Shown here: piece after piece, positions 6,471 to 63,265 of the stretch | Layout of the letters: the number at the start of each line of letters is the position of its first letter | How positions within the stretch are numbered: the first letter of the stretch is position 1 | DNA from: Camelus ferus | Lineage: Eukaryota | DNA length: 64,000 nucleotides | Direction of reading: 5' to 3' | NCBI RefSeq assembly: GCF_009834535.1 | Contig: NC_045696.1 | Span: forward strand, 41,356,001 to 41,420,000 | The notes under the pieces: model-generated | What the model was told of the DNA's origin: nothing | The model's input: only the letters and a program-made list of their open reading frames with translations | Databases searched by the model: none | Position numbers and translations under genes: made by a program

Positions 6471-6603
6471 CTGTCATTGGGACATTGACTTGGCAACGTC
6501 CAGTCGTGGTTAGGGTTGATGAGGAAGCCCCAGGACAGGAAGACTGAGCTCGGTGTCAGGGTGCCAACCACCAGCTGGAGAGGCTTGCGAGACCGTGCTT
6601 TCC
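6471..6603 (-). CDS. ABI3BP: ABI3BP exon 4, 133 bp, start of fibronectin type III domain
   Basis: Acceptor ctccacag|, donor ag|gtaatg; encodes (G)KARSRKPLQLVVGTLTPSSVFLSWGFLINPNHDWTLPSQCPND(R); phase compatible with exon 3. Confidence 0.95.
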
Positions 6604-10735: not shown

Positions 10736-11402
10736 TACAACATAGGATTTCAGTCTTCCTTAAGTATAAACATTTCCGTATGACTAATTTATACACACAA
10801 TATCCTCTTTCCTATTTCAAGTCTTCTCAGCCCTGGGAAGATGGGTGTTGTGCTGCTGTTTTACGAAAGAGTCTTTTTTTGTTTGTTTGTTTGACTAAAT
10901 ACAAGAAATTTAGAAGGATGAAGAGTAAATAAAATCTAAGTTCCCACCCATTTAACACATATGTAAATAAGTTATGCTTTTGAAATGTTCACAGTTCCTT
11001 CAGCAAAGTTTAGACATCAAATTTTGTCCCAAAAGTCTGAAAGTGTTCACACTTCGCAAAACAGAGGCAGGCCAATGGGAGGGAACTCTACACGAGCACT
11101 GGCTATGGGCCAGGCCTGTCCTGCATGTCGCACGTCCCTGAACTTGTCCTCACCGAGACCCTACTGTGCAGCAGACTGGAGAGCAGAGGGGTTCCGTAAC
11201 TTGCCTCATCTCCTGCAGTTTGTACGTGGTGGTGCCAGGATAAATCCTAGGAGCCCCTACCACCAGGTTATGCTGCTCCCCAGGCAGGGTCATCCATTGA
11301 CAGGGGGCCTGCTGGACGCTGTGCATCTTCCCATCTACATCCCTAAGGCATCCCCAAGGCACTTGGGCTCCATGGATAGCAGAGACGAAAAGGCATGGTC
11401 TA

Positions 11403-11904
11403 TATATAGTAACATGTCATCGGCATATAATGACACTTTTACCTCTTCTTTTCCAATTTTGATCCCTTTTATTTCCTTTTCTTGCCTGACTGCTGTGGCT
11501 AGGACTTCCAGGACTATGTTGAATAGGAGTGGTGATAGTGGGCATCCTTGTCTTGTCCCAGATTTTAGTGGGAAGCTTTTGAGTTTTTCACCGTTGAGTA
11601 CTATGCTGGCTGTAGGTTTGTCATATACAGCTTTTATTATGTTGAGATATGTTCCCTCTATACCCACTTTGGCGAGAGTTTTTATCATAAATGGGTGTTG
11701 AATTTTATCAAATGCTTTTTCTGCATCGATTGAGATGATCATGTGGTTTTTGTCCTTTCTCTTGTTGATGTGATGTATTACACTGATTGATTTGCGTACG
11801 CTGAACCACCCTTGTGTCCCTGGGATGAACCCCACTTGGTCATGATGTATCATCTTTTTTATATGTTGTTGGATTCTATTTGCTAATATTTTGGTGAGGA
11901 TTTT
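11403..11904 (-). mobile_element. L1 ORF2 reverse-transcriptase fragment without 3'UTR or poly(A)
   Basis: Open frame [17 protein letters not shown]...[16 protein letters not shown]...[13 protein letters not shown]...YADDMLLYI; perfect 16-bp TSD gaaaaggcatggtcta at 11387-11402 and 11905-11920. Confidence 0.95.
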
Positions 11905-11957
11905 GAAAAGGCATGGTCTAAAGATAATAATAATTAAAAAATCAAACAAAAAAATAC

Positions 11958-12026
11958 CTGAGCATGACTTCTTTTGACTGGGGGGAGGAGCAGGTCGCAC
12001 GACAATCAGATATTTCGGCTCCGCAT
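11958..12026 (-). CDS. ABI3BP: ABI3BP exon 3, 69 bp
   Basis: Acceptor tttccag|, donor cag|gtattt; encodes (D)[22 protein letters not shown](G); phase 1 to phase 1. Confidence 0.95.
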
Positions 12027-25971: not shown

Positions 25972-26781
25972 AGGATTAACAGATACACACTACTATATAT
26001 AAAACATATAAACAAGGACCTACTATATGGCACAGGGAACTATACTCAAAATCTTGTAATAACCTGTAATGGAAAAGAACCTAAATATATATATATATGT
26101 ATGTATGTGTCTATATATATGTATGTGTGTATATATGTATGTGTATATATGTGTGTATGTGTATATATATGTATGTGTATATATATGTGTGTATGTGTAT
26201 ATATATGTGTGTATGTGTATATATGTGTGTATGTGTATATATATGTGTGTAAGTGTATATATATGTGTGTATATATATGTGTATGTGTATATTGTGTGTG
26301 TATATATATGTGTGTGTGTATATATATGTGTGTGTGTATATATGTGTGTGTGTATATATGTGTGTGTGTGTATATAGTGTGTGTGTATATATGTGTGTGT
26401 ATATTGTGTGTTGTTATATGTGTGTGTGTGTATATATATTGTGTGTATATATGTGTGTGTACATGTGTGTGTACATGTGTGTGTACGTGTGTGTGTACGT
26501 GTGTGTACGTGTACATATGTGTGTATGTGTACATATATGTGTATGTGTACATATATGTGTATGTGTACATATATGTGTATGTGTACATATGTGTGTATGT
26601 GTACATATGTGTGTATGTGTACATATGTGTGTATGTGTACATATGTGTGTATGTGTATATATATGTGTGTATGTGTATATATATGTGTATGTGTATATAT
26701 ATATGACTGAATCACTTTGCTGTACACCTAAAACTAACATTGTAAATCAGCTACATTTCAATAAAAAATAATTTTTTAAAA
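25972..26781 (+). mobile_element. Young L1 3' end containing an expanded microsatellite
   Basis: ggattaacagatacacactactatatataaaa...gactgaatcactttgctgtacacc...caataaaaa; TSD aa(a/g)ccttaatga at 25960-25971 and 26782-26793. Confidence 0.9.
26086..26704. repeat. Compound (TA)/(TG)/(TATG) microsatellite, about 620 bp, with an 18-bp higher-order unit
   Basis: Nearly continuous purine-pyrimidine alternation; gtacatat(g/a)tgtgtatgt repeated 8 times from 26511. Confidence 0.97.
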
Positions 26782-32760: not shown

Positions 32761-34182
32761 TAGAAGGGATGAAAACAGCTGTTAATAAATGAAAGGGTAC
32801 CTAGTCCTTTGATCATCCCTCATCACTGAACTAGTGAAAGGTCGGTATATTTGTGCTAGAAATCTTCTTTAGCTTTCTGCACAGTTTTCATGAGCAATCT
32901 TTCTATCACCTTTAAGACTGAATGCCTTCTACCTCATAAGGAAAGGAAGCTTACTATTCCTTAAATTCTCAATCTACATAATCAAGGAGAAAACATGATC
33001 ATTAATATATAACTTCTAATGCTCACTAAGTAAAGGAACAGTAGATCTGCTTCTATTTGTGGTGTGGGTACGTATATAGCTTCTGGTCACTTTTTATAGT
33101 TAACAGTGAACATGGTGGGGGAATATTTGCAAATATTCAAATTCTTTATGGTTTATATGGTTAAGGTTAGTGCTGTTACATTTGTCAAAGTGCAAACAAT
33201 TCTCATATTTTGGGGGGCAACAAAAGGTAGTGTGTTTGCTTTAAAGTGCTTATCTTATGTCAAGTCTAATCTAGAGACTTATAATTCATAATGCTACTCT
33301 CTTCCCTAATTTTAAAGTAAAACAGAGACTTCTTTAAGAGGAAACAAGGGCTGCAGGACAATCTGGATTCACCTTCAACATCCCCTCCATATATGCAGGA
33401 AAGTCACATCGGTCCTACAGTAGTTCAAGGTGCAGGATTAAACTCTGGAAGGTCGTAGGAAGGTTTTTAAGCAATAATCCTAGCAGTGGGGCAAAATATA
33501 AATCTTATCTTAGGTCAGGAAACCTTTGACAGAGTTCAAAATAAATGATCCCTTTTTAAGAAATACCCTGTTAAAAAACCTTTTATTTGCAAATAATTTT
33601 TCTGGAGAAGGTCTGAAGGTGCCACATCCTTAAATTATATTTTGATGCAGTTAAAAACATTTTTTAAGGAAATGTAAAATTTTATAATACCTACAAAAGC
33701 TTTAACCATTTCATCTAAAAAACTCTAAAAATTTTAAGTGTATTCCATTTTTTTTCCTTTTGAAAGGCAGCTTCTTAATGAAGAGACATCCAGAAAGCTA
33801 CTAGTTGATATTTTTCACCAGAAGAAAGTAAAGACACTGCAGGGAGGAAAATTAATCCCCATAAACAAGCTATGTTACAGAAATTTAAGCCCAGGTATTT
33901 TGGCTAATTTTTCCTCTATGCAATTTTAGTTATGTAGTCAGGGATTGTAGCTATAATACCAATGAAGTTATTGATTTCTGCAGTAGATACAGAGTATGCA
34001 TTACATATTTTTTGATGTAAAGAGTTCTGCTACGGGTTACAATTATGAAGATGATTTGTAATTCTGGTATTTGGTTCAGCTGATGACGTAGAAGAAATGG
34101 TATTTGCCTTTAAGATTACATATCAAGTGTTACTCATTACCTTTTACTTCTTCTTCCCATGCCTGAAACCCAGACATCTTAC

Positions 34183-34361
34183 CGACTACGGCCTCGGTGT
34201 ATTTCCCTTCTGCAGGAAGAGGGAAGTACTGGTTTGGTGATAAATTGCTGCCATATCCCAGGAGAAAACCTTCCAGTTTACATTAGGACTTGGACGCAGG
34301 AACTTCAAGAAGATGGAGTCACTTGTGGTGTTGATGTGGACTTTCAGGTTTGGCTTTTTAC
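34183..34361 (-). CDS. ABI3BP: ABI3BP exon 2, 179 bp, apparent 1-bp frameshift
   Basis: Acceptor catctttag|, donor |gtaaga. Reads (G)KKPNLKVHINTTSDSIFLKFLRPSPNV, then in a shifted frame LEGFLLGYGSNLSPNQYFPLPAEGKYTEAVV(D); both halves match recalled human ABI3BP. Confidence 0.93.
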
Positions 34362-35179
34362 CTAAAGATGGGAACGAAAAAATAGGTGGCTGTTACTTCA
34401 CCTCTTTCAAGCCCCAAGAAAAATTTGGAGCAAAGGTCAGTTCCTAGAGGCACTGTTATTGGAAAACATGTTATTGAGCTACTCAATATCACAACACATC
34501 CACCTACATGCTAAAATACAGGAGATTTTGAGATCGAAGAAAATAGACTTAATAACATATAAAGCACTCTAGAGTATAAAGTAAAACTTTAGGGTTTTAT
34601 ATTTGGTAGGTTTATTATTGAGAGGTAAATGGGATTTAAGACTATTTTGGCTGTCCACAATTGTTCAGAACCTTCATTTTATACACACTGTCTGGGAATG
34701 GTAAAAGGATCTGAAATTTCTTACTAGTAAGTTGAATTACTGCAGTTTGAAAAGCCCCAGCCTCCTCAACAGTGATCTCCAGCTGCACCCTCCCAGGACT
34801 TAGTGATTAACAGAGTTGGAAAGGGAGGGAAGTGGTTAGGTTTTGGCTTAGGGGTAATTGAGATGGTAGAATAGGGACTTCTGAAAGGAGAAGGGTTGAG
34901 AAGAAAGATGCTTACTTCTACTTGGAGTTTGCTGGATTGGTGAGACAACTACATGGAAATGCCAACAGGAAGTCGACAACCTAAGTGTAATGCTCAGGAA
35001 GGGGGTACAGATCCACCTGGGCATCATTACTTTATACATGATCATTGGGTGAACCTTCCCGAAGAGGCTGCAGAGGAAGGGGAGAAACCCTACATTTTCA
35101 AGGCATTATTATTGTTTTTTAACAATGTAGGCAACAGGGGCAGACAATCATACCAACCAAAGGTCTTGACCAAGCAATA

Positions 35180-35410
35180 AGGAAACAACACTGTCTTTGT
35201 CCTTGGGGCCAGAAGGAGCTGGGTTCAAACTGCAACCCTGCCACTGACTTACAAGTGTACCTCTGGCTACTCACGAAACTGGGTTTGAGCCTTGTTTCCT
35301 GATTTGTAAATTATGGGTAATGGATAACAATGTCTATTTTGACAGGTTGTTTAGAAAGGCTAGTGCAAATGGCACTATCTTAAGCTGGCACATAGTAATT
35401 TCTCAATAAT
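35180..35410. mobile_element. MIR SINE
   Basis: ctgggttcaaactgcaaccctgccact...gagccttgtttcctgatttgtaaattatggg...tggcacatagtaa. Confidence 0.7.
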
Positions 35411-35422
35411 TGGTTACTTAAT

Positions 35423-36041
35423 CAGGTCCATCAATAACACTTTAGCCACAGTTCAGAAATCCAAAAAAGCTTTGTAAAGTTTTTGTACATTCATGTCAAA
35501 CTAATTTGGCAACAAAACTTAATCTGTTTACTAGTTACTGGGGGGAAGTGGGTGGAAGGAGATAAATTTGAGAATTTGAGATTTGCAAATGTTAACCACT
35601 ATATATAAAAATAGATGAATAACAAAATTCTTCTGTATAGCGTAGGGAACTATATTCAATACCTTGTAATAACCTTCAATGAAAAAGAATATGAAAACAA
35701 ATATATGTATATATATGCATGACCAGGACATTGTGCTGTACACCAGAAATTGGCACATTGTGGCACCAACTATACTTCAATTAAAAAAAAAACACTTCAA
35801 TCTGAACTGTAATGAGGTCATTTAGTCTTTCTTTAATCTCACTGAATAGTCAGTGTAACTGATGCACATATTTAATTGTAGGAATATCTAAGTGTTAATT
35901 AAGGGGTGCTGATCAAGACTCCACTGAAGCAGTTACTTAATACATGGTCTAGGCATCCTAGTACATTTCAAAAATTCAAGGATTTTCTGAATTCTAAAAT
36001 GTGTCTGGCCTCAAGAGTTTTAGATAAGAAATCATGGACCT
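35423..36041. mobile_element. TcMar-Tigger-like DNA transposon relic, interrupted by L1
   Basis: Inverted termini caggtccat ... atggacct; internal gaaatccaaaaaagct and ctggcctcaagagttttagataag. Confidence 0.55.
35530..35792 (+). mobile_element. Young L1 3' end
   Basis: gttactgggggga...gggaactatattcaatacc...tgctgtacaccagaaatt...tatacttcaattaaaaaaaaa; flanks actt(c)aatctg. Confidence 0.9.
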
Positions 36042-62759: not shown

Positions 62760-63265
62760 GGACATCAATGGTCTAAATAAGAGAGATCATCACAGTGGAT
62801 CAAGAACAAGACCCAGCTATATGTCATCTATAAGGAACCCATTTTAAATGTAAAGCTACATATGGATTAAATGGGTTCTATAAGGAACCCATTTTAAATG
62901 TAAAGCTACATATGGATTAAAAGTAAATGGATAGAGAAAGATATATCATGTTAACACTAATCAAAAGAAAGCAGAAGTAGCTATATTAAATTCAGACAGA
63001 GCAGACTTCAAAGCAAGGAATTTTATTAGGAATAAAGAGGGACATTACATATTGAAAAAGGGGTCAATTCTCTAAGAAGATATAACACTCCTCAACATAT
63101 ATGTGCCTAACAGCACAGGGTCAAACTGTGTGAGGCAAAAATTGACAGAACATCAAGGAGATGTAGATTAATAATCCACATCAGAGTTAGAGACCTCAAC
63201 ACTTCAACAACCCTCTATCAGAAATGGACAGATTTAGCAGGCAAAAAATCTGTAAGGACATAGTT
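62760..63265 (+). mobile_element. Old L1 ORF2 endonuclease-region relic
   Basis: aatggtctaaata...caagacccagctatatg...acactaatcaaaagaaagcagaagtagctatattaa...gataaagagggacattacat. Confidence 0.8.
62827..62921. repeat. Perfect 45-bp direct duplication with a 5-bp spacer
   Basis: tctataaggaacccattttaaatgtaaagctacatatggattaaa at 62827-62871 and 62877-62921. Confidence 0.95.

Follow-up and report, generated by a model that had tools for sequence, protein, structure and literature searches.

A single-base frame break in ABI3BP exon 2 of Camelus ferus: a likely assembly consensus error

The ABI3BP (TARSH) gene in the Camelus ferus genome sequence lacks one base in the assembled codon 55, which lies in coding exon 2. 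This is likely an assembly consensus error, and the sequenced animal likely carries an intact gene; the probability of this reading is put at roughly 0.82. ABI3BP is a known gene and the lesion is a known kind of artefact. The base would have been dropped in consensus calling and then missed by polishing, a kind of error described for long-read camel assemblies. The division between an error and a rare allele rests on comparative evidence and on priors. In the following, the window is the whole 64-kb stretch of DNA that was analysed.

The frame break and its gene

Exon 2 of ABI3BP is found on the minus strand at 34183..34361; its residues, 27-86, make up most of the first FN3-like domain. It is bounded by a canonical AG acceptor (TTTAG, minus strand, 34362..34363), with pyrimidines at 17 of the 20 upstream bases, and by a canonical GT donor (GTAAGA, minus strand, 34181..34182). 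The exon measures 179 bp; 180 bp are needed. The missing base maps to 34277..34279 (minus strand), which reads AAA at codon K55 and is where the frame switches. The phase-1 frame of the exon (KKPNLKV to PSPNV) reads KKPNLKVHINTTSDSIFLKFLRPSPNV, continues as NWKVFSWDMAAIYHQTSTSLFLQKGNTPRP, and ends at a TAG at 34188-34186. The other frame, which runs from 34279 to the donor (KLEGF to TEAVV), reads KLEGFLLGYGSNLSPNQYFPLPAEGKYTEAVV. When camelid ABI3BP proteins are compared with the window by tblastn, exon 2 appears as two matches in different frames, meeting at 34277-34279. The first-pass annotation had described a 179-bp exon between canonical splice sites, one base short at this point, and a shifted peptide followed by the TAG; the sequence and the tblastn matches agree on the former, and translation confirms the latter. 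The frame break is not a chance feature, because its two halves are identical to Bactrian camel ABI3BP at 27/27 and 32/32 residues, and because the junction is crossed in a single frame by all 120 homologs among the matches listed.

The assembled run at the break consists of three A only. Runs of exactly three A or T are a very common context (2,023 in the window), and this counts against an error. The lost base would extend a homopolymer only if codon 55 is AAA and not AAG; the missing base could be A or G, and the placing of the lesion in a homopolymer at first pass would hold only in the former case. If the codon is AAA, a run of four A would have been shortened to three. A metagenome scan for exon 2, aimed at the K55 codon in a relative, gave no matches.

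Two further exons of the gene are seen in the window, both on the minus strand: exon 3 (11958..12026, 69 bp) and exon 4 (6471..6603, 133 bp). Each is intact and identical in protein to camelid ABI3BP. Exons 2, 3 and 4 occur in order on the minus strand and match ABI3BP proteins, as is expected of an ortholog. The second half of exon 2, used as a query, matched 1,860 proteins, and ABI3BP or target of Nesh-SH3 is the name given to most of the 120 that were listed. The gene had been assigned to ABI3BP at first pass, with exons 3 and 4 described as intact and conserved, and the exact match of exons 2-4 to camelid ABI3BP bears out both statements. A scan of the remaining exons for lesions had also been proposed. 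It is covered for exons 3 and 4, the only others seen in the window, and neither carries one; one of the three exons in the window is thus broken. The tblastn comparison of camelid ABI3BP proteins with the window gave no convincing match for residues 1-26 or beyond residue 158.

The lesion falls within a folded domain. Residues 31-207 of a homolog, P0007, match the tandem FN3 domains of DCC and neogenin (E 2e-5 and 4e-5), a likeness measured on this homolog and not on the broken exon, and the residues at the break align in P0007 with a conserved DCC segment. Pfam searches with the short exon pieces found nothing, and the AlphaFold model of P0007 (mean pLDDT 31) was left unused. C-terminal FN3 and TARSH_C (PF21731) domains are present in another homolog, P0068; the corresponding exons lie outside the window.

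The window also holds several repeat features. A 502-bp internal reverse-transcriptase fragment with an open frame (Pfam RVT_1, E 2e-34), which we take to be L1 ORF2, lies within 11387-11920, between exact 16-bp direct repeats (11387-11402 and 11905-11920). It has no 3' UTR or poly(A). On the plus strand the flanking repeat reads GAAAA..., which makes the reverse-transcriptase piece antisense to the normal insertion orientation; it could represent either an internally primed insertion or the inverted half of one that was twin-primed. Exon 3 reads through in frame into this fragment, giving a 237-codon open frame (12048-11338, minus strand); the in-frame continuation is probably due to chance. 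The exon 3 donor (CAG/GTATTT) is weak-looking, and intron retention at exon 3 would make a chimera of ABI3BP and reverse transcriptase. Intron 2 contains a compound (TA)n/(TG)n array of about 620 bp (26085-26705) with higher-order periods of 18 and 36 bp. An exact 50-bp tandem duplication (62827-62921; 1.9 copies, 100% matches) lies inside a repeat-derived stretch; it could be young or an assembly slip.

Predicted effect of the premature stop

Read literally, the sequence is predicted to be a null: the product would be 84 residues long, and its mRNA is a predicted NMD target. The premature TAG in the shifted frame (codon 85; 34186..34188, minus strand) lies 3 nt before the donor, with the exon 3/4 junction 72 nt downstream of the stop. 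The open frame that remains on a literal reading amounts to 84 of at least 1,115 residues (less than 10%), as in a pseudogene. By the positional rules given in PMC12668785, a stop is expected to escape NMD if no more than 150 nt separate it from the start, if it is close to the last junction, or if its exon is longer than about 400 nt. None of this holds for codon 85, which lies past the 150-nt limit and well upstream of the last junction, and NMD is therefore predicted. The expectation at first pass that so early a stop would trigger NMD fits these rules.

Routes by which the gene might escape the lesion were also considered. The next in-frame methionine is residue 293; reinitiation there is unhelpful, as the product would be without the N-terminal hydrophobic region. 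No GT or AG near exon 2 restores the whole frame, and rescue by splicing is unsupported. The in-frame alternative donors only truncate the exon (39, 66, 72 or 132 nt kept), and the one in-frame alternative acceptor (87 nt kept) is weak, with pyrimidines at 9 of 20 positions. Every alternative splice form deletes or scrambles part of the FN3 domain. Skipping of exon 2 would keep the frame but lose 60 conserved residues; of the 407 stored proteins, 288 contain the exon-3 motif, and in none of these is exon 1 seen joined to exon 3. Programmed ribosomal frameshifting requires a slippery heptamer. None is present at the site by eye, and this route is rejected.

These properties suit a real null allele too. 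The break could be a recent frameshift allele in the sequenced animal, either homozygous or heterozygous and picked by the consensus, and rare in the species; we regard this as unlikely, although it is the foremost of the alternatives. Its product would be made up of the signal region, half an FN3 domain and 30 foreign residues, 84 in all. The position of the stop relative to the exon 3/4 junction, the distance to methionine 293 and the lack of an exon 1-to-3 protein are in its favour, as is the use of knockout mice as adults. Survival of Abi3bp knockout mice makes a real null allele biologically possible by analogy, and to that extent it counts against an error.

Camelid records, sequencing runs and alternative readings

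The closest known sequences are the ABI3BP proteins of Camelus bactrianus (XP_074218458.1), C. dromedarius (XP_064352031.1) and Vicugna pacos (XP_072822623.1). The window exons give the same residues at positions 27-53, 55-86, 88-109 and 111-153; the difference is that the camelid records cross K55 in one frame, whereas the window is short one base there. The comparisons place the window among the camelids. All 93 camelid-named cluster representatives examined are intact and contain no X, and so are all 29 listed cluster members. The isoforms behind these records fall into six RefSeq accession series (alpaca, dromedary and Bactrian camel have two each) and represent at most six independent observations. 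No Camelus ferus ABI3BP protein occurs among the members listed for two large clusters (15 of 144 and 15 of 37), and no ABI3BP model among the rows listed is marked 'LOW QUALITY'. In a further search among more distant relatives, the site is spanned by 90 of 148 new representatives, whose identity is 31-90%. Exon 2 is, as judged by sequence comparison, under deep constraint.

The intact camelid records and this constraint both favour an error. So does the isolation of the lesion: it affects one of three window exons, and exons 2-4 show no amino-acid change from the Bactrian camel protein over the 124 codons compared. Such absence of accompanying decay is what a consensus indel error leaves behind. 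The shifted peptide is also missing from the protein searches, which again favours an error and speaks against a rare allele. Its words occur in none of 407 stored proteins, which carries little weight, since transcripts subject to NMD seldom receive a protein annotation. With the 57-residue shifted product as query, over a length range that covers the 84-residue protein, one candidate came back, an intact exon. It should be noted that a young allele would show no decay either. At an assumed divergence of 0.3%, exons 2-4 would show no amino-acid change with a probability of 0.43; at an assumed neutral divergence of 2.5% the figure is 0.001, so that only a very young loss is compatible with the data. 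Old loss of ABI3BP is ruled out by the 124 of 124 matching codons and the intact camelid records. The first-pass annotation had ranked a consensus error or a very recent allele above old pseudogenisation; with three camelid species intact and no changes in exons 2-4, this ranking stands.

Known false inactivating mutations in mammalian assemblies resemble the ABI3BP lesion. In the data given by Sharma et al. 2018 (PMC5865188), 85-91% of the conserved genes that are still flagged after filtering are mutated in a single exon only, which is insufficient for loss; a gene loss call there requires lesions in several exons and their validation with raw reads. The likeness to the present case is the single-exon lesion. 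The difference is that Sharma et al. validated lesions with raw reads; the assignment for ABI3BP is made by likelihood. A camel genomics paper (PMC7468183) describes a screen for reading frames broken by uncorrected PacBio indels, which concerns the same animal group and the same lesion type. That screen covers dromedary proteins (CamDro2/CamDro3), and ABI3BP is not discussed in the parts of the paper drawn on here.

That ABI3BP has become a young unitary pseudogene, lost by fixation throughout this camel species, is the least probable of the readings and can be given only a very slim chance. The literal sequence, with under a tenth of its frame open, would accord with it, and the records listed include no fourth camelid that would exclude it. 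Alpaca, dromedary and Bactrian camel are intact, so such a loss could not predate those splits, and exons 2-4 hold neither a second lesion nor an amino-acid substitution, a result that has a probability of 0.001 at 2.5% neutral divergence. By the marks of a unitary pseudogene given in PMC5865188, inactivating mutations would be expected in several exons, and only one of three is affected; relaxed selection or a shared lesion would also be expected and neither is found, a comparison with weak power for a very young loss. No report of ABI3BP loss in camels was found in the open-access literature searched by titles, abstract starts and listings. Taken more broadly, a camel lineage with a natural ABI3BP knockout at high frequency or fixed is very improbable.

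The word content of public sequencing runs was compared using 263 sampled words from 32800-35450 (2.65 kb), with 24 runs listed. The top 14 runs (13 samples, 5 studies, two organism labels; 9 guessed to be DNA and 5 unstated) each hold 0.94 of the words, and none reaches 1.0. The share is 0.19-0.42 in six runs that are RNA or guessed to be so, and zero in four; the six are no evidence of expression. The 0.06 shortfall corresponds to about five isolated differences in 2.65 kb, of which the deletion alone would account for about 0.01; about four of the five would be unrelated to the exon lesion. Words from exon 2 make up 5.7-8% of the query, which is near the size of the gap. The 0.94 ceiling fits several differences private to this sequence, as with private consensus errors, and so favours an error; it does not locate these differences. 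The same value would be reached with a rare divergent haplotype, and the ceiling also fits a private one; camel intron heterozygosity is given as 0.002-0.003 in the part of PMC7468183 used here. Against a rare allele, the full word set of the region occurs in none of the listed runs. Both organism labels reach the same 0.94, so neither is closer to the window than the other. If the allele were fixed, runs of its own species would be expected to score about 0.01 higher, which speaks against species-wide loss, but rounding makes this a weak test.

In long-read assemblies, frameshift errors usually outnumber real frameshift alleles. This prior is part of the reason for favouring an error over a rare allele. 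On the other side, the 502-bp reverse-transcriptase fragment keeps an open frame, so indel errors are not dense in this window. A consensus error is still the preferred reading of the break at codon 55.

Meaning for camel ABI3BP

Abi3bp knockout mice have been used as adults; in the portions of the two papers cited here, they recover more poorly after infarction and show less radiation-induced kidney ageing (the review PMC6426741, and PMC11134664). They give a picture of a real null. The mouse knockout differs in being engineered and not natural, and is silent on whether the camel lesion is real.

If the missing base is an error, its only significance is cautionary: ABI3BP would be miscalled in gene-loss screens and in variant calling on this assembly, and the base needs correcting. 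If it is a real rare allele, it would rank as an unremarkable loss-of-function variant that could be of some help in studies of genetic load in a small population. A null that is common or fixed, if true, would be a natural knockout of an extracellular-matrix senescence gene and of specialist interest. At fixation or high frequency it would mean that a camel lineage had recently lost a deeply conserved matrix protein linked to senescence, one that alpaca, dromedary and domestic Bactrian camel all retain; it would also be nature's equivalent of the knockout mouse, in which heart repair is poorer and the kidney ages more slowly.
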